NCBI GenBank assembly: GCA_051313645.2
Contig: JBNRSN020000015.1
Coordinates: forward strand, 44,640,001 to 44,704,000
Length of the DNA stretch: 64,000 nucleotides
Source: Centroscyllium fabricii
Taxonomy: Eukaryota
Direction: 5' to 3'
Shown: positions 2,106 to 41,955 of the stretch, one piece after another
Numbering within the stretch: the stretch's first letter is position 1
Layout of the letters: each line of letters opens with the position of its first letter
Position numbers and translations under genes: made by a program
Notes under the pieces: model-generated
The model's input: the letters and a program-made list of their open reading frames with translations, nothing else
Told to the model about the DNA's origin: nothing
Database searches by the model: none

Positions 2106-3409
2106 ATCAGCATAGGGATTGAACCTTGAATCATCTTGGTCTGTAAAACTCAGTCCCACAACCAAGCAGTGTATTTACCCACTTAGCCTTGGGGGGAGCC
2201 CTGAAAGGGGTGTGGTTTAAGTTACTGGATTTATTTTTACATTCTCAGTAGTATTTCTGTAAAATCTGTAGCTGAAGTAAACATTTGTTTGTGGTTTGTG
2301 TAGGAAGGAATGTTAGCTAATATTGAACATTTTTGATTATTTTTGTGTCTGCTGGTGGTTGTGATTTCCCTGCAGTGTGGCGAGTATGTCCGGTGTTATA
2401 TAACTTCAGATGTGTAGATTATGTGTTTGACCGTGTCTTTGTAAGAGTGCCATTTGTCTTGTGCCATGTTGAGCTTGTTGATGACTTAATAGATTGCTGA
2501 AAACTTTGAATAAATCGTTCTGTCTGAAGAAGGAAGTGATTTCTACTCATTGCGTGGGAAGTGTACAGATTGTACTCGGACAGCAACAGATTCTGAAGAG
2601 CATCGTTCCTTACTCAAGACCTTGGATTTTCCATATAGCTTTGCACTCTGCTCTGATTCTCCTTTCCCCCCCCCCCCTCCCCCCAGCCTTTTTGTGCAGA
2701 GAATCTGGTCTCTGCAATCAAGCCTGCCTGGACGGGTTAGTGGAACTCCCTGTTTTTGGCACTTCAGTGAAGTGTAATGGTGGTGTGTGTAAAACACTTG
2801 CACTGTATCCATTTGAACTGTTAAGATGCCCATCGGTACAATTAGAGATTCTATCCTTCTACATGAGGATTGTGTCTGGAGAGAGCATTTTGTGTAACAC
2901 TGGGGTGAGGTACCAGTGATTACATGCCCATCACTGGTGGTGGGAGTAGTTTGAAGTGATGAATCAAAAATATCACACACACCATGCAACAAACTATAAA
3001 AGTGTGTTGGCTTAGAGTTCTTTTCCCCTTTAATATATTGGTACTTCCATACTAAATGAAACTGATGACAGTATTGAGTATTTTAAATAAAAACAGAAAA
3101 TGCTGGAAATACTCAGCAGGTCAGGCAGCATCTGTGGAGAGAGAAACAGAGTTACCGTTTCAGGCCGATGACCCTTCGTCAAAACAGAGTATTTTAAACA
3201 TCCCTTTACTAATTTCCATAGAGTGAGGTAGGGGGAATGCCAATTTGGCACTACAAGCAGAGTAACAGACATTGATATTCTAGGACTGGGTTGGATTAAT
3301 ATTAATTCATTTTCCCCTCCTTCAGTGACCTGATAGATCCTGTGTCGGATACACACCTGGTTGTGCTTAGCTGATCCAACCCCAGTCCTTATTAGTGATA
3401 ACAGTATTA

Positions 3410-8148: not shown

Positions 8149-10776
8149 GGCCGGAATTTTGCCCTAATGGCGGGGGATTGGTCGGGGCGGGTTTTTGTCC
8201 CACCCGATTAAGTGCCTGCGTTTCCCACGCGATTTTCGTCCAACGACCCAATTAATTCCCCGCCTGTGGGAAGACTTCCCAATCACCGATTTCCAGTCAG
8301 AAAGTCGCACAATATGACGTCAGGATTTGGGTTTTCTTTAATAAACACAGCTTGCCTCCTGCACTGCTCAGAGCTCTGCAACCTTCAGCAGGATGGCAGA
8401 ACGCGAGGGTGCTGCATCGGGCAGCGCGAGGGGACGACCCGCCCCCAAATTTGATGATGCCTCCCTCGACGCATTGCTCGAGGGGGCAACTACCCATAGG
8501 GAGGTTCTCTTCCCCTCCTCCGGGAGGAAGAGACCTCCCTCACAGACTAAGGCTGCATGGCAGCAGGTGGCTGAGGGGGTCAGCTCTTTGGGCACAACAC
8601 CCCGGTCTTGGCTGCAGTGTCGCAAGCGATTGCATGACCTTCATCGCACTGCCAGAGTAAGTATTCATTTCCCCTCACCCTCAATCTCATCCCCCTCACC
8701 TCTCCTCACCACAACTTATCTTCACCGCTCCCTTCCTCCACATCCCACTTGCCCATCACCTCCAAGCAACCTTACCCATTCCCTCTCTATGCTCACACTC
8801 ACGGTCCTTTCCCTCCATTCAGCCCTCACACTCCCTCTCACTCTCATGCTTGCTGCACATCTGGCACCACACAGGGAGAGCCTTTGGTCTTGCAGGCTCA
8901 CTGCATCTTTGTCACCCTACAGCAAACTTTGCTGGTCACTCGCTGCAACAACTCCTTCCTTCTCACTCAACCTCCACTTCTCTCCCTCATTGCAGGAAAA
9001 GACAGCCGCCAACAAGCGGCACAGCGCCGGGACCGGAGGAGGAGGACCCCCCACCATCCAGCAGCTCACCACCTGGGAGGAGGCAGTGCTAGACCTCGTT
9101 GGGGAGGGGCAAGCCCCGGGAGTGGGTGACGGCGGGGCAGGCAGGCAGGCAGGCAATCTCGAGCTGGTGACAGCATGGTTTAATTATTTCTCTAACAACT
9201 AACACATGAGACTGGCACAATGAATGTAAAAGCACTGCAGAGGCAGCTCTGCTCAGCTTCTGAATGCTATCTGTATGTAACCTTGCTGACATATCTCTAA
9301 CCTCTGCCTTTACTGCCCCATAGGCCCAGCCGCAGTTGGACGGACAACCAGAGATCAGCACCAGGCCACCCCTGTCCAGTCCTCAGAGGAACCTGCCACC
9401 TCTGAGGGTGCACCCTCAGCACCACAGACTCCACCCGGCACCAGCGCAGATACTAGCACCTCCGGTGGGCCCCCCTAGAGCTACATATGACTTGTCACCG
9501 GGTGATTCAGACCGCACTAGTGAGCCTCAGCAGATTGTGGAGACGGGGACAGCAGTGCATGTCGACACAGCGCCTTTGGATCCATCAGGCAGAGGACACA
9601 TGATGGGACTCCAGACACAGATGCAGGCGTCTCTGACAGGTTTTGTCTCCCAGGTAGCTGCGAGTGTCATGCGAATGGAGGAGTTTGTCGCAAGCATGAG
9701 AAGCGACCTTGCGGAGTCAGTGGCGCATGATCGCATCACCATGGAAAGGATGGCGAACACCATGGAAAGGATAGCGACCGTGGACGAGAGGATGGCCACG
9801 GCCATCGAGCACATAAGTCGCCAGTCTTTCGAAGACATGGGTACTGTCCACAATAGATACACATCTCTTGAGCAGCGAGTGGCATTTATTGAGCAGATGA
9901 CCCAGACCTTCATTGAAGTCCCTCTCAGTAGGACTTCCACTGCAGAAACGGGTCCCCATGGCCCCCCTGAAGTGCAGCAAGGTGCTGTCCAGCCACTTGC
10001 TGGCGCTGAGGGGGAGGTGACCCATGAGAGGGAGGTTGGTGGTGCAGCTGAAGGAAGTGGGGGCTCCTCTCCAAGCGCTCCCACGTCCACACCACTGCAG
10101 AGCCCTCGGTCAGAGGCCCGCCGGAGTCCCCATGCACCTGAGATGGAAGTCTCATACCCTGCCCAGCCGCAGGAGCATCAGGCTCCTGGTGTGGCTGCTG
10201 CTGTAGACGCATCTGCTCCTGGTAGAGATCATGCAATCCCAAGAAGGGAAGGAAGACAATGGCTCCCATGGCTGTGCTGGCAGCCTCGTCTGAGGAAGCA
10301 CTGAGGAGGGGGGGGGAAGTGAGAGGGCTTTCCCAGGTCACACTGCAGAAGTGTTTGAGGATTCAACCTTCCACAGGTGTGCTGAAGCCTGTTGCAAATA
10401 TCCCCAGAACTGAGAGAACAATGTGTTTGCGCAAGCGAATGATGGCTGATTAAATGTGAGCCTTCATTGAGTGACCGGACACAGATACTCAGCAGTCCCA
10501 CTGAGTTCACACAAGGGTTTCACCTGACGGGGTTTATCTTGGCGGGTTTTGTGCATGAAACACGTGAAAATTGCTACGGGCCCTTAAAATGGGATTACTG
10601 ATGCCAATTAAGGGCCCTTAACGACCTGAACAAGCAACCCCGCCGGGCGCCGGCGGGAAAGATTCGGGGCGGGAAAAAAGCCCGCACAAAAATTGAAATC
10701 CGGCGGGGAATGGGCGGGAACCAAAATTTTCTAATTTTCATCTCCCGCCCGACGGGGACATGAAAATTGCCCCCCC
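8149..10776 (+). mobile_element. Harbinger/PIF DNA transposon, internal-deletion derivative (Myb/SANT gene kept, transposase lost)
   Basis: Imperfect TIRs GGCCGGAATTTT / AAAATTGCCCCCCC. Both subterminal regions are homologous to the element at 34720-38939 (ccaattaattccccgc, tttccagtcagaaagt, cccttaaaatgggatta...aattaagggcccttaa). Confidence 0.85.
8393..10304 (+). CDS. Harbinger Myb/SANT-like (trihelix, MSANTD-type) DNA-binding protein; predicted exons 8393-8656, 8996-9166, 9324-10304, about 471 aa
   Basis: Exon 1 RPAPKFDDASLDALL...HREVLF...AWQQVAEGV...RSWLQCRKRLHDL is Myb_DNA-bind_5-like. Splice sites AGA|gtaagt, ttgcag|GAA, CTG|gtgaca and catag|GCC join in frame without stops. Heptad-like region MERMANTMERIA. 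Confidence 0.7.
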
Positions 10777-12278: not shown

Positions 12279-12488
12279 GAGACTGATTATGTTGCAAATG
12301 ATCAAGTTGACCTTTACGACGATGTAATAGCGGCTGCCGATGGTAATAACCATGAAGATCAAAGTTATGATGACCTATTATCACGGACTCCCGGTGAGCC
12401 ACAGAAAACGGACAATAGTGCCAGGCCAACCATAGTCTACACGTACGGAGGCAAACGGCAAGCTGTCTATGTGGGAAACCTGACATGG
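12279..12488 (+). CDS. CPSF7: CFIm large subunit (CPSF7-like), coding exon A: acidic N-terminal region and start of RRM
   Basis: tttcag|GAG ... TGG|gtgagt, 210 nt, phase 0/0. Translates ETDYVANDQVDLYDDVI...IVYTYGGKRQAVYVGNLTW, matching the CPSF6/7 motifs DQIDLYDDV and YTY..KR.A.Y.GNLTW. Confidence 0.93.
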
Positions 12489-15292: not shown

Positions 15293-15868
15293 AGGCCCTG
15301 TCACACCTAGACGTTTTAGCCAGCGTATGCAAATTTGGCTAAAACGCTGGGTTACGTCGGATACGTTATGGGTACGTTATGCATACGCTGGGCATACGTT
15401 GCATACGTCGTTGTACTTCGAGTAAGTCGAGAATTTTTGAGCATGCACAAAAAATCTCGACGTATCTAGCGTATGATTCACACGTTCCGCATACGCTGGC
15501 CATACGTTGTAGGCACGTTAGGCGATCGTTGAACACACCTTACCTGTGCCCCTGTCATGCCCTGTCACACCTTGACGATTTCGTATGCCAACGTATCAAC
15601 ATTTATCTAAAACGTCGGCGATACGCTGCCGCGCGCTATGCATACGTTAGACTATCGTTGGGCATAAGTTGAGAACGCCGACAACACGCTAAGCATTCGT
15701 TGGTATAAGTTATCTGTAAGTTATCGATACGTTCTGTGTACGTTACTAATACGTTATGCATACGTTATGAATACGCTATTATACGCCCAAAACTGAAAAA
15801 AAGTCAAAAGTTCAGCGTTTAACCAAATTTGCATACGCTGGCTAAAACGTCTAGGTGTGACAGGGCCT
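15293..15868. mobile_element. Young MITE with 46-bp perfect TIRs and TTA TSD (PIF/Harbinger type)
   Basis: TIR AGGCCCTGTCACACCTAGACGTTTTAGCCAGCGTATGCAAATTTGG is identical at both ends; TTA at 15290-15292 and 15869-15871; CpG-rich interior. Confidence 0.9.
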
Positions 15869-26398: not shown

Positions 26399-26529
26399 TC
26401 CTGATAATAAGGATTATTCTGGATTGGGATGTTGCTTACTGTTTGTGTTAGTGATCTATTCTTGTTTATCACTCCTTGTATGTAATTGAAATTGAATATT
26501 GGAACTTGCCCCTCGACCTTTTCAACCTC

Positions 26530-27190
26530 TCCCTGCCTTCTCCCCCCCCCCCCCCCCCTCACCTGTCCTCCCCTCTCCCCCCGCCTGTCCTCCCCCCACC
26601 CCCCCGGCCTTTCCTCCCCGTCTTTCCTCCCCCTCCCCCCGCCTGTCCTCCTCCCCCCGCCTGTCCTCCCCCCATCTGTCCTCCCCCCCTCCCCCGCCTT
26701 TCCTCCCCTCCTCCCCTGCCTGTCCACCCCCTCCCCCCTTTTCTCCCCCCTCTTTCCTCCCCCCGCCTGTCCTCCCCTCCCCCGCCTTTCCTCCCCTCCC
26801 CCAGCCTGTCCTTCCCCCCCGCCCCGCCGCCTGTCCTCCCCCCCCTCCCCCCGCCTGTCGTCCCCCCCCCCCCCGCCTGTCCTCCCCCCCCCCCCCTCCC
26901 CCCGCCTGTCCTCCCCCCCCGCCTGTCCTCCCCCCCCGCCTGTCCTCCCCCCCTCCCCCCGCCTGTCCTCCCCCCTCCCCCCGCCTGTCCTGCCCCCGCC
27001 ATTCCTGCCCCCGCCTGTCCTCTCCCCCCCCGCCTTCACTCCCCCCGCCTTCACTCCCCCCTCCCCGCCTTCTCTCTCTTCCCCCCCCCCCCGCCTACTC
27101 TCCCCCACCCCCCCACCTACTCTCTTTCCCGACCCCCACCTTCTCTTTCTTCCCCCCCCCGCCCCTGCCTACTCTCACCCCGCCTCCTCC
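26530..27190. repeat. C-rich minisatellite, unit about CnGCCTGTCCT
   Basis: Repeated ccccgcctgtcctcccc; extreme C skew. Confidence 0.92.
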
Positions 27191-27456
27191 ATGGTTTTAT
27201 TTGGTTGATTGGGTCACTGAAAAGAGCCCAACTCGTGGCGCTATTTCCTCCCCAGATGGCTGTTTTCTGCACATACTGATAGGGTTTGTTAAATTGAAGA
27301 GTGCAGATGGAGTGAATAAAGAGCAGCAGTTTCCAGTTGTTGAATGATTGATAATCGAAGGGCACAGGAGGAAAGACCTGTTTGTGCATCAAGCGGTTTG
27401 GATTTGGAATGCACTGCCTGATAGGATGGTGGGTGCAGAGTCAATAGTCATCTTCG

Positions 27457-27656
27457 NNNNNNNNNNNNNNNNNNNNNNNNNNNNNNNNNNNNNNNNNNNN
27501 NNNNNNNNNNNNNNNNNNNNNNNNNNNNNNNNNNNNNNNNNNNNNNNNNNNNNNNNNNNNNNNNNNNNNNNNNNNNNNNNNNNNNNNNNNNNNNNNNNNN
27601 NNNNNNNNNNNNNNNNNNNNNNNNNNNNNNNNNNNNNNNNNNNNNNNNNNNNNNNN
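27457..27656. other. Assembly gap (200 N)
   Basis: Run of N; the round length suggests a placeholder size. Confidence 0.99.
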
Positions 27657-30650
27657 CCGTCCTGTCGCCCCCCCCGCCCGTCCTGTCGCCCCCCCGCCCG
27701 TCCTGTCGCCCCCCCCGCCCGTCCTGTCGCCCCCCCCCGCCCGTCCTGTCGCCCCCCCCGCCCGTCCTGTCGCCCCCCCCGCCCGTCCTGTCGCCCCGTC
27801 CCCGCCCGTCCTGTCGCCCCCCCCCGCCCGTCCTGTCGCCCCCCGCCCGTCCTGTCGCTCCCCCCGCCCGTCCTGTCGCCCCCCCGCCGTCCTGTCGCCC
27901 CCCCGCCCGTCCCTGTCGCCCCCCCGCCCGTCCTGTCGCCCCCCCGCCCGTCCTGTCGCCCCCCGCCCGTCCTGGTCGCCCCCCCGCCCCGTCCTGTCGC
28001 CCCCCCCGCCCGTCCTGTCGCCCCCCCGCCCGTCCTGTCGCCCCCCCGCCCGTCCTGTCGCCCCCCCGCCCCGCCCGTCCTGTCCCCCCCGCCCTCCGTC
28101 GCCCCCATCTCCCGCCTCCTGTCTCCCCCCGTCCTTTCCCCCCCCGCCCGTCCTGTCGCCCCCGGCCGTGCCTGTCGCCCCCGCCCGTCCGTTCGCCCCC
28201 CGCCCGTCCTGTCGCCCCCCCGCCCGTCCTGTCGCCCCCCCGCCCGTCCTGTCGCCCCCCCGCCCGTCCTGTCGCCCCCCGCCCGTCCTGTCGCCCCCCC
28301 GCCCGTCCTGTCGCCCCCCCGCCCGTCCTGTCGCCCCCCGCCCGTCCTGTCGCCCCCCCGCCCGTCCTGTCGCCCCCCGCCCGTCCTGTCGCCCCCCCGC
28401 CCGTCCTGTCGCCCCCCCGCCCGTCCTGTCGCCCCCCGCCCGTCCTGTCGCCCCCCCGCCCGTCCTGTCGCCCCCCCGCCCGTCCTGTCGCCCCCCGCCC
28501 GTCCTGTCGCCCCCCCCGCCCGTCCTGTCGCCCCCCGCCCGTCCTGTCGCCCCCCCGCCCGTCCTGTCGCCCCCCCGCCCGTCCTGTCGCCCCCCGCCCG
28601 TCCTGTCGCCCCCCCGCCCGTCCTGTCGCCCCCCCGCCCGTCCTGTCGCCCCCCCGCCCGTCCTGTCGCCCCCGCCCGTCCTGTCGCCCCCGCCCGTCCT
28701 GTCGCCCCCCCGCCCGGCCTGTCGCCCCCCCGCCCGTCCTGTCGCCCCCCCCCGTCCTGTCGCCCCCCCGCCCGTCCTGTCGCCCCCCCGCCCGTCCTGT
28801 CGCCCCCCCGCCCGTCCTGTCGCCCCCCGCCCGTCCTGTCGCTCCCCCGCCCGTCCTGTCGTCCCCCGCCCGTCCTGTCCCCCCCGCCCTTGCTATCCTC
28901 CCCCCCGCCCTTGCTATCCTTCCCCCTGCCCTTCCAGTCCTCCCCCCCCCCCCCCCCCCCCACCTCCCCCCCCCTTGCCGGTCCTGGTCCCCCCCCGCAT
29001 GTCATGTCCCCCCCCACCCGCCGGTCCTGTTGACCCCCCCCACCGCCCGTCCTGTCCCCCCACCACCCGTCCTGTCCCCCCCACCACCCGTCCTGTTTCC
29101 CACCCGCCCGTCCTGTCCCCACCCACCCGTCCTGTCCCCACCCACCCGTCCTGTCCCCACCCACCCGTCCTGTCCCCACCCACCCGTCCTGTCGTCCCCC
29201 CCGCCCGTCCTGTCGTCCCCCCGCCCGTCCTGTCGTCCCCCCGCCCGTCCTGTCGTCCCCCCCGCCCGTCCTGTCGTCCCCCCGCCCGTCCTGTCGTCCC
29301 CCCCCGCCCGTCCTGTCGTCCCCCCCCGCCCGTCCTGTCGTCCCCCCGCCCGTCCTGTCGTCCCCCCGCCCGTCCGTCGTCCCCGCCCGCCCGTCCTGTC
29401 GTCCCCCCCGCCCGTCCTGTCGTCCCCCGCCCGTCCTGTCGTCCCCCCCGCCCGTCCTGTCGTCCCCCCCGCCCGTCCTGTCGTCCCCCCGCCCGTCCTG
29501 TCGTCCCCCCCGCCCGTCCTGTCGTCCCCCCCGCCCGTCCTGTCGTCCCCCCCGCCCGTCCTGGTCGTCCCCCCGCCCGTCCTGTCGTCCCCCCCGCCCG
29601 TCCTGTCGTCCCCCCCGCCCGTCCTGTCGTCCCCCCCGCCCGTCCTGTCGTCCCCCCGCCCGTCCTGTCGTCCCCCCCGCCCGTCCTGTCGTCCCCCCGC
29701 CCGTCCTGTCGTCCCCCCGCCCGTCCTGTCGTCCCCCCGCCCGTCCTGTCGTCCCCCCCGCCCGTCCTGTCGTCCCCCCCGCCCGTCCTGTCGTCCCCCC
29801 CCGCCCGTCCTGTTTCCCCCCCGCCGTCCTGTTTCCCCCCCGCCCGTCCTGTTTCCCCCCCCGCCCGTCCTGTTTCCCCCCCCCGCCCGTCCTGTTTCCC
29901 CCCCCCGTCCTGTTTCCCCCCCGCCCGTCCTGTTTCCCCCCCGCCGTCCTGTTCCCCCGCCCGTCCTGTTTCCCCCCCCGCCCGTCCTGTTTCCCCCCCC
30001 GCCCGTCCTGTTTCCCCCCGCCCGTCCTGTTCCCCCCCGCCCGTCTGTTCCCCCCCCGCCCGTCCTGTTTCCCCCCCCCGCCCGTCCTGTTTCCCCCCCC
30101 GCCCGTCCTGTTTCCCCCCCCGCCCGTCCTGTTTCCCCCCCGCCCGTCCTGTTCCCCCCCGCCCGTCCTGTTCCCCCCCCGCCCGTCCTGTTTCCCCCCC
30201 GCCCGTCCTGTTTCCCCCCCGCCCCGTCCTGTTTCCCCCCCCCGCCCGTCCTGTTTCCCCCCCCCGCCCGTCCTGTTTCCCCCCCCCGCCCGTCCTGTTT
30301 CCCCCCCCCGCCCGTCCTGTTTCCCCCCCCCGCCCGTCCTGTTTCCCCCCCCCGCCCGTCCTGTTTCCCCCCCCGCCCGTCCTGTTTCCCCCCCGCCCGT
30401 CCTGTTTCCCCCCCCGCCCGTCCTGTTCCCCCCCCCGCCCGTTCTGTTTCCCCCCCGCCCGTCCTGTTTCCCCCCCCGCCCGTCCTGATTCCCCCCCCCC
30501 GCCCGTCCTGATTCCCCCCCCCGCCCGTCCTGTTTCCCCACCCCCCGCCCCGTCCTGTTTCCCCACCCCCCGCCCGTCCTGTTTCCCCCCCCCGCCCGTC
30601 CTGTTCCCCCCCCCCCCCGCCAGTCCTGTTCCCCCCCCCCTGCTAGTCCT
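27657..30650. repeat. C-rich, CpG-rich minisatellite of about 19-22 bp units, GCCCGTCCTGT(CG/CGT/TT)Cn
   Basis: Over 100 tandem units in three variant blocks; accounts for all Pro/Gly/Arg-rich ORFs here. Confidence 0.97.
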
Positions 30651-31409
30651 GTCCCCCTGCCTTCTCTTCCTGTCGTCTCCCCCTTCCCTTCCTGTCGTCT
30701 ACCCCCCCTGCCCTTCCTATCATCTTGTCTCCTGTCCTGAAACTACCAACTCTTGCTGGGGTACTTTTCTGTTCGCAGCCCTCCATTGCCTCATCCAATA
30801 CTTCGTGTGAGTCTAGAGAGTTAACGTCCCTAGCCCAGGACGCTGTTATCATTTGTAGTTCCATTTGCAGCCCCAGCTGAGATCAGCTAACTCAGAGGTG
30901 GATCCTGGGACTCCTCTGGCCCATATGACTTGGTGTTACAGTAATAGCTGTGCAATGACCTATCCTATCGGATTTGAAATCTTGAACCGATCAAGCCCAA
31001 CCTCATTCCAATAACTTGTTCAATTAGGGGTTGGGGTGGAGGGAGGAATTGCAATCTTGCAGTAAATAGAAGAACACCAAGTGAGACTCAAGAATGTTCT
31101 GCGCTACAAAAGCACTGAATCCATTCAGTTAAAAAGGGCTCTTGTTTAAAATCCTACCATTTTCACCCATCCTGGTGGTTATTGCTTAAAAATTGACTTT
31201 TGTTAATTTTGAGTGCTGTGAACTCCCACTGCCCTGAAGGAACTGACTCATAATGACATACAGTTCCACGAACATCGGCCGCCCTCCGGCATCTTGCCCA
31301 AGTGACCATTCTTCATGCAAGCGCCTAGACCGCAGGTTTTCAAATCTTTGTGTGGGGAAATCTCCTAGAAATATTGAAAAATCTTCAGGGATCCCTGTCC
31401 GAACTTTCC

Positions 31410-33780: not shown

Positions 33781-34971
33781 TCATTTCCCAACTCCAATTT
33801 CTACTGGATACATTACCAGTGTCCAATCCAATGCAAGTGCGAATTGTTGCCAAGCTTGAGTTTTAAAATCCCGTTTGGTGCTAAGTTGTGAGGTCCTGGG
33901 AAAGAATGAGTTAAGATAGTATATAGTGCAATTAAATGTTGATTTCAGCACCAAGGATGCAGAGGGGAGAAAGATAATTAAGATTGGTGTATTTGTAGAT
34001 GATTGGTGTATCTGTAGCATGCAAGGAAGAAGAGAGCAGAATTTAGAGCAACAATAATTGTAGTGGTATCAATAAAATAATGAAGTTTGAGACAGATTAG
34101 AGGCTAGAGATGAGCAAGGGATTGCCTGTCATGTGTGAAGCTTTTTCCTGTAACCTGCCCAGGAGTACGAAAAGGTGTCTGAAGACTCTCATCAAATGTG
34201 GAAGGACGATTAAAGTCTTGGTTAGACCTGGGCCTAGTAGATATTCAATAGGTGTGAAAATACATTTACAAAGTGGCAGTCAAAATCGGACACACAGCCA
34301 ACAATTTTATGTCCTACATTTATATTGCAGGAGTGTGACTGGATGAGTTAAAAGCTTGATTTGTTTTTAAATTGACGTGCATAGGTGTGTGAAAGTTGAC
34401 CGTGAGATTTCATTCAAGTAAAATTCGCCAAATTGTATTGAGTCATACTGACTGGGATTACATATTGTTCCTTTGCTCATAAACTGACGAAGACTGGAAA
34501 GATTTGTGAAAGGAAAGGAGAGCTGTAGAAGGAAATTAAATCCGCCATGCTAGAAAGCTCTGCCACTTGGGATATGCAGCCAGGTTCGGATGATCTTTCA
34601 TGCCAATGAAGGAATGTTTCAGGCTCACTTTTATCAGTGAGGTGCTGTGGAAGTCTGCAATTCCAGTAGAACCAAAATTCTGGCAAGCCACCTTCTGATT
34701 TAAACATTTGTGTGTGTAGGGGGGGAGATTTTTGCGAAGGTGTGGGAAACTGGCAGGTTTTGGGCGGATCAGGTTTCTGTCCCGAATATTCAAGGGCCTG
34801 GGAGCCCCACGCAATTTTGGCTCAATTGGCCAATTAATTCCCCGCGTGTCTGAGCCCCTGTCAATTGACTGTTTCCAGTCAGAAAGTTGCACAGTATGAT
34901 GTCATTGTGTCTGTTGCTTTTTAGGCATACAGCAAGCCTTCCGCTGCAGGCTTCTCATTACAGCACTGAGA

Positions 34972-36913
34972 ATGGAGCAGGAGCCTGCAGCAGCTGGTGT
35001 CCGCAGTAGGGCCCGATCCCCTCCAAGGTTTGACGAAGGCTCTCTACAGGCATTGGTAGAGGGGGCTAGGGCCCACAGGGGTGTTCTCTTCCCTGCGTCC
35101 GGGAGCAAGAGACCTCCCTGTCAGACAAAGGCTGCTTGGCAGCAGATCTCTGAAGCAGTGAACTCCGTAGCCCTGACACCTCGTTCGTGGATCCAGTGCA
35201 GGAAGAGATTCCATGACCTGCATCGATCTGGAAAAGTAAGTATGAAGTTCCCATCACCCTCAATCTGATCCCTATTGCCTTTCTTCACCAGCACTTGGCT
35301 TCATCAATCTCTTCCTCCACTTCACACTCACATCCATGCACCCTTACCCATTCCCTTTCTCTCTATGCTCATAAACACTTAACTATTCCACTGAGCAGCC
35401 CTCGCGCTCCCTCTCACACTGATGCTTGGAGCACAATGACAGCACACAGAAGGACCTTGGTCTTGCAACCTCACTGCATCTTTCTGTATCCCTCCAACTA
35501 TCTATGCCTGGCACTCTCTGCACTCACTCCTTCATTCTCACTGAACCTCCACTTGTCTCCCTCATTGCAGGGAAAGAGCACTCACAATAGACTGGAGCAA
35601 GCAATGACAGGAGGAGGCCCACCCTCCATCGCACACCTGACCACCTGGGAGGAAGCAGCAGTGGAGATAGCAGGGGATGAAGTGGCAGTGCCAGTTGGGG
35701 ACGGCGAGATGGGCATCATCGCAAGCTGGTGACAATCGTTTCCCATCTCGACATCGCAATTGTGGCAGATAATGATGCTGAATCTACATCATATCGACTT
35801 ATGATCATCTGCAAGATGCAATGTGCATGTAACCTTGCCATCACATCTCTAACTCTTTCCTTTACTCCCCCACAGGATCATCGAGAGCCCCCGTCCCCAA
35901 TGTGCAGGAGGAAGAGGCTGAGGCTGAAAACTCCTCAGAGGAAGCTGCAACCTCTGAGGGCGCAGCGTCAGCAGAATTCTGCGCACCCAGCACCAGCGCA
36001 GATACTCACACCTCGGTGAGATCTTCGGGACATAGCGTAGTGTTGTCACCTGGTGAATCACAGCTCACAAGTGAGCCTCAGCAGATTGTGGAGAGAGGGA
36101 CAGCAGTGGAGAGTCCTAATCAGAGGGCGCAGGACTCTGCCAGCTCAGCTGAGCTGCAAGTCGACCCTCAGCCTCTGGGTCCATCAGCTACAGCAGAGGT
36201 GATGGAACTCCATGAGCAGATGCAGGAGTCTCTGGCAGGTTTTGTCTCCAGGGTCGCTGCATGTGTGGAACAAATGGAGGAGTCCATAGCTGACATGAGC
36301 AGAGCCTTTGTGGAATCACAGGCACATGAACGCAGCACCGTGGAAAAGATGGCAACCTCCGTGGAAAGGCTGGCTACTGCCATGGAGGCAGTAAGTCGCT
36401 GGAGTGATGAAAACATAGTGAGTGTTCAGAATCGACTGACATCTCTGGAGGAGCGATGGGCAGCTATTGAACACCGAAACCAGACCTTCATGGAAATCCT
36501 TCTGAGAAGGACTGCCATTGCAGATGCGGGTCCCCATTACCCCCCTGATGTGCAGCAAGTTGCTCTCCAGCCACTTGCAGGCGCTGAGGGGGAGATGACC
36601 CATGAGAGGGAGGTTGCTGGCACACCTCAAGGAAGTGGGGGCTCCTCTCCACGCGCTCGCACTTCCGTGCCACTGCCGAGCCCTCGGTCAGAGCCCCACG
36701 AGTCCACACCCAAGCGAGATAGGCGTCCCAACCCCTGTACAGGAGCAGCAGACTGCTGGCGAGCCTTCACAGGCTCGCCACCCCAGTGGACGCCCGCCAA
36801 AGGTGTTGAGACAGGAGCAGCAGGGAAGTGAGCAAGGGGCCTCCACATCTGCTGAAGCCACAGGGGAACCACTACGTAGGAGCACGCGTAAGAGAAAGAT
36901 ACTGCACACGTAA
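34972..36913 (+). pseudogene. Harbinger Myb/SANT-like gene, probably frameshifted (exons 34972-35235, 35571-35728, 35876-36913)
   Basis: RSPPRFDEGSLQALV...AWQQISEAVN...RSWIQCRKRFHDL. Exon 2 donor is phase 2 but exon 3 needs phase 1. A second frameshift near 36695 puts the basic tail (GRPPK...LRRSTRKRK) in another frame. Confidence 0.75.
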
Positions 36914-37150
36914 TCACAAGGGTAGTCACTTGGGTGAAGTGTTGTCATCAGTTATGTAATTTGTAGTAAAAATCTGATGGCAACTGTTGTTGTGGCGTAT
37001 GTAATTTAGCGCATAGGGATTTCGCATTGAGGGCTTATGAGTACTTGCAATTATCAGTATGCTGGAGAACTAGCTAGGAATCCACTGGGTCTTGGCCATG
37101 GCCGATGCTCAGTTAGGAATCTGCGAGTCAAAAGTGTTTAATTGAGTAGG

Positions 37151-38400
37151 CTAAGCAAATCTGCCCAGGATGATTGTGTTCCCTGCAGCCCGGACAGCAA
37201 TGGTCTCACGTAACGCTCGCTCTGGTTGACGGGCTTCTGCAGGATGCTCGTTTGCGGACTCCTCGTCCTCCTCCTCATCATCATCATCATCATCTGAGGA
37301 GGATATGCGAGGAGCCTCTTGGTCGTCAGGCATCTGCAAGCAACGACACTGTGCCACGTTGTGCAGTGCACAGCAGACCACGACCATTCTGGAGACCCTG
37401 TCTGCTGAATACTGGAGGGCTCCACCTGATCTATTTAGGCATCTGAAGCGCATCTTCAGAAAACCAATGGTTTGCTCTATAATGCATCTGGTGGAAATAT
37501 GGCTGGAGTTGTAGCGCTCATCAGCCTCGTTGGCTGGCCTCCTCAACGGCATTATTAGCCAAGTCTTATGGGATAGCCCTTGTCCCCAAGTAGCCATCCC
37601 TCAAGTTTGTGTGGCGGGCTGAAGAGCGGAGGCACAGGAGACTGGTGCAGGATGGAGTCATGGCAGCTGCCAGGGTACCTGGCACAAACATGCAAAATCT
37701 CCTTGTGGTCACACACCAGCTGAACATTAAGGGAGTGGAAGCCCTTGCGGTTGACAAAAGCCCCTGGGTTAGCATGGGGTACCTTAAGGGCACATGTGTG
37801 CAGTCAATGACGCCCTGCACCCTTGAAAAGCCTGCCAGACGAGCTAAGCCAATCGCTTGCGCCCTGACATTTGCGTGATCCCTGGTGAAATGGATGTGAT
37901 TGTGCGTGAGGGCAAAGAGGGCATCGGTTACCTGCGTGATGCAAGTGTGCACGGCTGACTGGGAAATGCCGCTGATATCTGCTGCTGATCCCTGGAATGA
38001 GCCTGAGGCAAACAAGTTGAGTGCGGTGGTGACTTTGATGGCCACTGGTAAGGAGTGTCCAACTCGTGCTCTGTGCTCCAGGGCTTTCTACAGCATTGCG
38101 CAGATGTCAGTCACTACCTGTCGCGAAAGCCGGAGCCGCCCATGGCACTGCCACTCAGTCATATTGAGATAACTGACCCTGCATCTGTAGAACCTGTTTG
38201 GGGGGTATCTCCTGCGCCGATGGGCTTCCACGCACTGGCCCCTTCTGGCCTGTGCTGCCTCCGGCTCCTGCCTGTCGCTCCTGGTTCTGTTGCTGCTGCT
38301 GTTGTTGCTGTATCTGCTGTTGTTGCTGTATCTGCTGCTGCCGCTTCTGCCGTTGGAGATCCTCTAATGCCAGGAAGGGAAGGAAAAAAAGGCCTCCCAT
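37151..38400 (-). pseudogene. Harbinger DDE transposase (HARBI1-like, DDE_Tnp_4), disrupted
   Basis: Fragments in different frames: KVTTALNLFASGSFQ...[84 protein letters not shown]. Several frameshifts and an in-frame stop. Q-rich N-terminus from ATG 38400. Confidence 0.92.
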
Positions 38401-40569
38401 GCTTCTGGTGCCTGCCTCCGCTGAGGTAGCACTGACTGAGGGTATAGCACTGAGTGAGGGTGGACAGAGGGCTTTCCCAGGAGGTCACACTGCAGAAGTG
38501 TGTGGGGCTGGAGCCTTCTGAGGGACTGGTGAAACCTGCAACAAGTTGCCCCAGGCCTGAGACTGACTGGCCTTGGCCTACCAGCTGCCAATGAAGGCAG
38601 CTTAAATGTGGATCATAATGATGGACCTGCTGCTGATAATCAGGGAGCCGATTATGTTCCTGCGGGGTTTCAGGATGGCGGGTTTTGGGTGGGAAACGTT
38701 TTAAAATAGCCGGAGGCCCTTAAAATGGGATTATCCATAGCAATTAAGGGCCCTTAATGAGGATTACAAACATTCCCACTGGTGGTGGGCGGGAAAGATT
38801 TGGACCGGTTAGACACGCCGGACGAAAATTGCAAAGCGGCGAGGATCCGGCAGGAGGGGTCGGGACCCCCTGGTTTTGTGATTTTTAAGCCCCGCCCCGC
38901 CGGAAACTCGCCCTCATGGTCCTCTGAAAATCCCCCCCCATGGTTTTTGAATGTGTAAAGATCCAACTTGCATTATGAACTGCAAACCTACACAAAGAAG
39001 GCAAACAAGAGAACGGAAAGAAAGAGAGATGGGAGTAGAAGAGACAAAGGAAACAAATGGACGAAGACGACTAATTCCAAAAGAGGGCAGAACTGTAGCG
39101 AGGGAAAAGTGGATAATATGTTCTGAAAAAGAGATAGATAAATTAAATTGAAATGATGTAAAAAGACATATTGAAAGTAAAAAGACATATTGAAAGCAGA
39201 TTCTGTATCTGTGAATCACTGGACATTGCAAATCAAGTCACATCTCTTAAATTTGAAAATGTATCCATATTTCCATGTATCTTTAAATGATGTACTAAAG
39301 GTTATTGTGCCCTTTCAATATTCAAATCAGAAATATCTCCAGTATAAAACCAGTGTTATTAAATGGAAAATTTTAATTGACGACATTGATTTTTAAATTT
39401 ATTTTGAAGGTAACAACCTACCCTCACAACAGAGTCTTTTGTTTTGTCAGCTTTCCCCGCCCTTCATGAAAATGCCGACTCTTATTGGGGCTGCCCTCCA
39501 GTACCTTGCCCAAGTGGCCATTCTTCTTGTATGAATCTTTATGGTGAGTATCAGCAGGCTTTTCCACTGTGTAGGTCTTCACAGCAGGGCCTGAACCTGT
39601 TTTCACTCGATGCAAATATAGTCACTGGATAGCAATTAGTAGCTGTAGTCCTGGCTGATTTCCCCCGCTGCCCCTTCTAAATCGAATGGCACTGGTATTA
39701 ATTGTAACAACCCTACTGCTGCCCTGGCTAAGCTTTACTAACTCAATGCAGACCAGGAATAAAACGGAACGTTTTGGTCTATATGGCTTTTTACAATATT
39801 GGGTAGAGTCTTCTTCCATTTTGCCACTGAGGGTGCCCTCTGCAAAAATAAATGCGATTTTTGCATTTGTTGTAGGACAAAGTGGGTAAAAAGTAAACAG
39901 CTGATTAATCTTTTGTTTCTCTTAACTTAATTTCTTTTGTAACAAAATGATTGTTAGGGGGAAGGTGTAACATTGATTACAGAATGGTTTAAAAACACAT
40001 GGGTTTTTCAAAAATGTTTCATAAGTCCAGTTGGTTTTTCTTGGTTTAGCTTATAGCAGGACTTGAGTTGACAGTAAAGTTGCATTGCCCAGTACCATTA
40101 ATTGGGGTGACAGTACTGTTACAATGGAAGTGCTATCTGCTTTAAGTATAAATCCAAGTCCTTAATAGAATGTATGCCCACAATCATGGAAACTGGTTCC
40201 TCCCATTATCAATTTCCGCACTGATAGAATTAATTTCAGCTGCCGGAAATGGTCGAACTCGGGAACAAAATGTGGCGTCAGTTTCAAGCTAGGCTCACCA
40301 CAAAAATAAATTACTTTCAAATCGAGCAGATAGTTTACTAAGACTGAGGTATTCCAGTTCATCAAGCCTACTAATAACAGTGAATCCCCTAAGTGATTAT
40401 TGTTTTGTGCTAAACAGTATTTCATTGAGAGAGTTCCAACGGTTTTACGCAAAAAGCCTTGACCCCCCCTCCATAATTAAACTTTCTTTTGTTTGTGTGT
40501 GTGTCGAGGGGGAGGGGCAGGGGGTTTAAAAACGGAACAGAAGGACAAGATAGTTGACAAAATAGTAAT

Positions 40570-41276: not shown

Positions 41277-41369
41277 ATTGTGTTAGCACATTGTGGATAA
41301 TTGCACATTGCCTATAATATTTTTCTCTCATCATTTTTTAACTTCATCGCTGAACTATAGATTGGATGA

Positions 41370-41955
41370 ATGTAAGAAGTCACACAACACCAGGTTAAAG
41401 TCCAACAGGTTTATTTGAAATCACAAACTTTCGGAGCATTGCTCCTTCGTCAGGTGAAGTGAAGAGATGCATATAGGCACAGCATATATAGTCAGAAAAC
41501 AATGCTAGATGATTACAGGTCATTTTTCTAGCTGCCCTTTATCACACCTCGGCAGAGAGATAATCACAGCAATCAAAGGTGTGAATGGTGTCCAAACAGG
41601 TCAGTCATACAGACCCCAGCATGTGCAACATTTGACCCCATGTGACCTCACCTCATTGTTCTTTGTTGGAATGTTTTCCTAAGACTGACCTGTTTGGACA
41701 CCATTCACACCTTTGATTGCTGTGATTATCTCTCTGCCGAGGTGTGATAAAGGGCAGTTAGAAAAATTACCTGTAATCATTTAGCATTGTTTTCTGACTA
41801 TATATGCTGTGCTGAAATGCATCTCTTCACTTCACCTGACGAAGGAGCAGCGCTCCGAACGCTTGTGATTTCAAATAAAACTGTTGGACTATAACCTGGT
41901 GTTGTGTGACTTCTTACATTTGTCCACACCAGTCCAACACCGGCACCTCCACATC
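41370..41955. mobile_element. Non-autonomous Penelope-like element: inverted pLTR pair
   Basis: Arms about 41369-41606 and 41683-41920 are near-perfect reverse complements, each with a hammerhead-like core. 13-bp TSD ATAGATTGGATGA (41357-41369) / ATAGGTTGGATGA (41956-41968). Confidence 0.8.
41425..41453 (-). ncRNA. Minimal hammerhead ribozyme motif
   Basis: Minus strand CUGACGA-a-GGAGC-aau-GCUCC-GAAA-GUUU. The mirror copy on + at 41836-41860 has GAAC instead of GAAA. Confidence 0.6.

Follow-up and report, generated by a model that had tools for sequence, protein, structure and literature searches.

The window that we analysed is a stretch of 64,000 nucleotides from Centroscyllium fabricii (contig JBNRSN020000015.1), and at positions 8149-10774 of its forward strand it carries a transposase-less Harbinger derivative of 2,626 bp, flanked by a 3-bp duplication (CCT/CCA) in which two of the three bases match. 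The gene around this element has its first coding exon 1.4 kb before the window and its next exon near 12300, with exons that match RSLD_CPSF6 (PF25524) in profile searches lying downstream; it is predicted to be a CPSF6/7-like gene, and by its N-terminus it may be CPSF7 rather than CPSF6. A PDB search with one host exon gave no match. The exon positions place the element in intron 1, between host exons 1 and 2 and on the same strand, so that the original prediction of a nested, same-strand intronic gene was right as to position. A later intron of this host holds a two-gene Harbinger of a related family (about 34720-38940), both genes of which are broken. The window also holds a long C-rich tandem array of ~20-nt units (26400-30800; N run near 27450-27650), a possible weak spot of the assembly; a degenerate 11-nt CpG-rich tandem repeat (15362-15786); and a MITE-like inverted repeat of 247 nt (41363-41926), 94% complementary and with a spacing of 70 nt, of which another copy lies near 31409.

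Alignment with family copies shows that the element keeps both of its ends, at 8149-8160 (5′) and 10763-10774 (3′). The ends of the family are sharp and conserved, and the inverted repeats that they form are imperfect and only ~12 bp long; the TIRs of PIF/Harbinger elements are usually 25-50 bp according to PMC9179366, and PMC4482050 gives 12-61 bp for NuwaI. The 3-bp target duplication is perfect in 25 of the 41 copies that have both ends (16 of 26 among those with the deletion described below), other duplication lengths and offsets being far rarer in the same 41. As for the target sites of known groups, the CWG duplication of the NuwaI group is not the pattern here (CAG makes up 1 of the 25 perfect duplications), and the C|TNA|G target of NuwaII is seen in part: C precedes the duplication in 26 of 41 copies and G follows it in 23 of 41, with TNA in only 3 of the 25 duplications. 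The flanks of the 41 copies suggest a target preference of roughly CAC-NNN-GTG, in which the 3-bp duplication at the centre is variable, and the first base differs between the two family ends; this pattern is an exact match to none of the groups in PMC4482050. No second copy of the element's 5′ flank junction was found among 40 scored matches.

A spliced Myb/SANT frame of about 471 amino acids without an internal stop had been predicted in this element, and we reproduced it: exons at 8393-8656, 8996-9166 and 9324-10304 on the forward strand, separated by GT..AG introns, join into 471 codons and a single terminal stop. The Myb/SANT domain lies in exon 1, which matches Myb_DNA-bind_5 (PF13873; E 7.7e-9, above cut-off) in a profile search, and Atlas assigns its domain type to the same family with high confidence; the domain is unchanged from the family state. 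Exon 2 is 171 nt long, against 160 nt in most family copies, and the family donor at 9167 is in phase 1, so that the predicted phase 0 reading of the donor in this copy is correct. The CRE palindrome TGACGTCA, predicted upstream of the ATG, is indeed present at 8315-8322; its use as a pointer to selection is not supported, since 85 of 109 copies have it and it is the state of the family. Protein searches with the exon-3 frame gave no match among 1.84 billion, and exon 1 gave none against longer proteins; both results are uninformative, because even close family proteins are missing from them.

The element had been compared with the Harbinger of the later intron (~34.7-38.9 kb). We rejected this in-window sister as a comparator, as it belongs to a different family and is itself frameshifted (exon 2 of 158 nt; a frame of 155 codons), being 70-75% identical to the true parent. 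That parent is ~5.3 kb long, with a Myb gene facing a transposase gene, and its opposite strand holds a stop-free frame of 519 codons. At the DNA level it shares 75% identity with the in-window sister, a fragment of which matches DDE_Tnp_4 (E 1.5e-13, in a profile search run on the sister and not on the parent's frame). The PF13873 Myb gene, the two-gene parent and the 3-bp target duplications of the family together bear out the predicted Harbinger origin, and the predicted loss of the transposase amounts to ~2.6 kb of the 5.3-kb parent. The deletion junction (10167-10184) lies inside an 18-nt imperfect direct repeat, found both in exon 3 of the Myb gene and, in antisense, at the start of the transposase gene. 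As a consequence of the deletion at this repeat the derivative is without the basic tail that ends the parent's Myb protein, and the 471-aa frame takes its last 40 codons from the antisense strand of a transposase 5′-end remnant (10167-10269, reverse strand; ~34 codons from the likely Met). The majority of deletion copies have the same open tail, at 500 codons. Among full-type copies, stop-free transposase-side frames of 485-529 codons occur in 5 of 17 (L157, L160, L165, L171 and L173), and the family may be recently active.

A search of the species' own genome (7.2 Gb) found copies at 89-96% identity. A 19-mer from the right arm had 5,789 exact matches (control 0), giving a family of at least 5,789 copies; this motif was aimed at deletion copies and also lies within full-length elements, and since it occurs in both alike the number counts the whole family, the deletion fraction being taken from an unselected sample, the first 60 motif matches on one contig. 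That sample contained no deletion copy. The same junction was found on many contigs in 44 of 90 fetched copies, a set enriched for it, and all 40 scored matches to a junction query span the junction. The deletion class numbers at least the 44 copies observed and, by the rule of three, probably fewer than about 290; the count of same-deletion copies that the original prediction had proposed as a check thus stands at no fewer than 43 others. The class forms a star-like cluster among the youngest branches of the tree, and a single origin is compatible with the data (p-AU 0.87) but not thereby established. Within it the copy at 8149-10774 has an ordinary end branch (0.011 against a median of 0.014), and it is 98% identical to other copies. 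It is a recent insertion in a young Harbinger family. A second Myb-bearing class with shared transposase deletions (L188, L191, L196, L208, L212 and L226), with breaks near 3323/3596 and 3862/4644 of parent L173, a full-type copy, makes up 6 of the 60 unselected copies and is commoner than the deletion class studied here; one member, L226, has an open Myb frame of 510 codons.

Measured against the copy's own family, the extra (GGCA)n run predicted in exon 2 is an exact private insertion of 8 nt (9135-9142, GGGCAGGC), and the extra C predicted near 9463 is a private insertion of one C at 9462. Neither is carried by any of 28 aligned family copies, and of the 118 and 119 copies in which the respective contexts could be mapped, no other has them; both are observations on the assembly sequence. 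Between them, at 9143-9461, 162 coding nt (54 codons) are read in another frame, and at 9462 the frame is restored and reads through to the terminal stop, so the two insertions do compensate each other as had been proposed. The prediction was right on these two and overlooked three further private changes, all in frame: +3 at about 9035 in exon 2, and in exon 3 a 48-nt deletion at ~9555 and a 9-nt deletion at ~10196. Exon 3 also contains a variable 21-nt repeat (near 9735-9775), which was excluded from every substitution count. In the family majority the shifted frame runs without a stop for 294 nt past the site of the +8, and thus any +1 or -2 change there would reopen the frame without selection. 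The indels of this copy were found in none of the other copies examined, and the copy therefore has no detected offspring.

Long reads are known to gain or lose single bases in short runs, and it has to be asked whether the assembly is wrong at one of the two insertions, most likely at the single C, which stands next to another C; the real copy would then be a plain frameshifted pseudogene. One-base changes are the commonest in the family, 89 of its 105 indels outside repeats not being multiples of three, and the contigs of four sequencing runs (two samples, one study), which cover all 29 bins of 8950-9760 in pieces no longer than 60 nt that come from many copies, speak neither for nor against the indels. 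An error would, however, have needed the right size and a position inside the 294-nt window, and a tandem expansion of 8 nt would be typical of slippage rather than of sequencing. We hold such an error to be very unlikely.

How much the open frame means depends on how often it is met in the family. Our alignment contains 74 copies, 16 of the 90 fetched having been dropped as truncated or interrupted, which raises the rates of open frames. The gene is open past 10170 in 6/37 deletion copies (the copy studied included) and in 5/37 full-type copies, in a set biased to young copies; among the other deletion copies 5/36 are open, 4/36 of them to the same stop, and in the unselected sample 1 of 24 complete genes is open. 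Net-zero sets of frameshifts occur in 12 of the 73 other copies, a few of which are probably alignment slips. Neutral resampling of the observed changes left 17-18% of frames open, and 0.4-0.5% open by way of compensated frameshifts (young copies); with ~2,300 complete Myb genes in the genome (5,789 x 24/60), this gives roughly 2-10 such copies per genome, which a scan for oddities can be expected to meet. The open frame of the copy at 8149-10774 is not more than chance, others among deletion and full-type copies being likewise open, and the original suggestion that it points to selection is not upheld.

The contrary reading is that we are looking at an early domestication, or at a selected helper or brake for the element's own family. 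Such a gene would have its own promoter in an active host gene and would make a protein that has its Myb domain intact and binds the family ends but is without the parent's C-terminal tail; the 3′ part of its mRNA would be complementary to the start of the transposase message. In a variant of this reading, the second frameshift would have rescued a young copy, with selection on the DNA-binding domain and a dominant-negative or antisense brake on the family's thousands of copies as the outcome. We regard both the reading and its variant as unlikely. A copy that bears as many changes as this one (15 substitutions, 4 indels) would keep an open frame under neutrality in only 0.9% of cases, and if the deletion class is taken by itself, at 44 to about 290 copies, the expected number of compensated open frames is only ~0.2-1. 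The Myb domain is in the family state, the three further indels are all in frame, the element lies in the first intron of a gene of housekeeping type, and repeated domestication of Myb genes is a precedent (PMC9392472). Against this, the gene must have gone through a frameshifted state, and it was its openness that caused this copy to be chosen for study.

The same reading draws on the substitutions, where the copy has a synonymous lean and a low dN, and where all four rare changes in exon 1 are silent. Private changes in other copies follow a neutral ratio, 26% synonymous. The strictly private substitutions of this copy, in its own frame, are synonymous in 3 of 7 cases (p 0.26), and looser carrier cut-offs give 8/13 (p 0.02) and 9/14 (p 0.01); in the shifted segment 3 of 4 changes are silent in the new frame. 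The signal thus varies with the cut-off, and copies without an open frame look similar: L098 has the identical 8:5 ratio, and L100, which has a stop, ties for the lowest dN. That lowest value, 0.69% in the copy at 8149-10774 (33 whole deletion copies; pooled 1.47%), is not below the rate in the non-coding parts of the same copy (p 0.49 by Fisher's test; 0.17 with silent sites). Against the family majority dN/dS is ~0.3 on 16 changes (p 0.01-0.26), and broken copies reach 0.34-0.42; exon 1 is free of rare amino-acid changes in 10/73 copies. The synonymous lean is a hint that keeps selection on this copy alive as a reading without establishing it.

Selection is visible elsewhere in the family's history. 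In the Myb exon (8393-8656), non-CpG variants present in at least 4 copies have a silent-to-replacing ratio of 9:2, compared with 39:99 among singletons (p 0.0007), and exon 3 has no such silent bias among its shared variants. The signal comes from full-type copies, the deletion class having no shared exon-1 variants. This bias clearly reflects selection on past active masters, at the DNA-binding domain.

Our preferred reading, which we consider highly probable, is that the copy at 8149-10774 is an ordinary non-autonomous, Myb-bearing Harbinger copy, likely in neutral decay and with a frame likely open by chance. A deletion at the 18-nt repeat would have made a transposase-less master, which full-length copies may have moved in trans in one burst, and one of the resulting copies would have inserted in intron 1 of the CPSF6/7-like gene. 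Once the copy was in place, its (GGCA)n run presumably gained 8 nt by slippage, and a second slip of 1 nt could have reopened the frame without selection. A frame change over 54 codons, a deletion of 16 codons and the loss of the basic tail would be beyond what a conserved protein tolerates.

As it stands, the copy carries little weight, being one in a large young family, and serves as an example that open frames in young repeats have to be judged against the rate in their family. Were selection to prove true, the copy would show, recently and in a form seldom seen, the process behind the vertebrate NAIF1 and MSANTD genes, and its thousands of neutral sisters would serve as an inherent control. 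The family is in itself of modest value for a question raised in PMC9179366, which reports no Harbinger in elephant shark and suggests other cartilaginous fish for examination, of which this genome looks to be one. A search of openly accessible papers found none on this Harbinger family, nor on frameshifts that compensate each other in the Myb gene of a Harbinger element.

The two-gene PIF/Harbinger elements of fish and the Nuwa groups share with the family a Myb/SANT gene facing a DDE transposase, the 3-bp duplication and ends that start with GG (PMC9179366, PMC4482050); the family differs in its imperfect ends of ~12 bp and in a variable duplication that is neither CWG nor TNA. The Myb-like protein of Harbinger elements binds the ends and the transposase and carries the latter into the nucleus, according to PMC9179366, and Myb-only derivatives that spread are described in PMC13668399: Harbinger-1M_cIno of Caenorhabditis inopinata is likewise transposase-less, with a Myb/MADF gene, both ends, a 3-bp duplication and a low-divergence cluster of copies. 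There, however, MADF-only copies outnumber a single intact transposase (PMC13668399), whereas here the deletion class is a minority, absent from the 60 unselected copies, and 5/17 full-type copies have long open transposase frames. NAIF1 and MSANTD1-4 have the same Pfam domain type and the same kind of source gene, and PMC9392472 gives them an age of 430-500 million years, with synteny throughout the vertebrates and purifying selection acting on them. A domesticated gene of that kind stands outside any mobile multi-copy element; the copy at 8149-10774, in contrast, is ~1-1.5% from its family, of which there are thousands of close paralogues, and still sits between both element ends.
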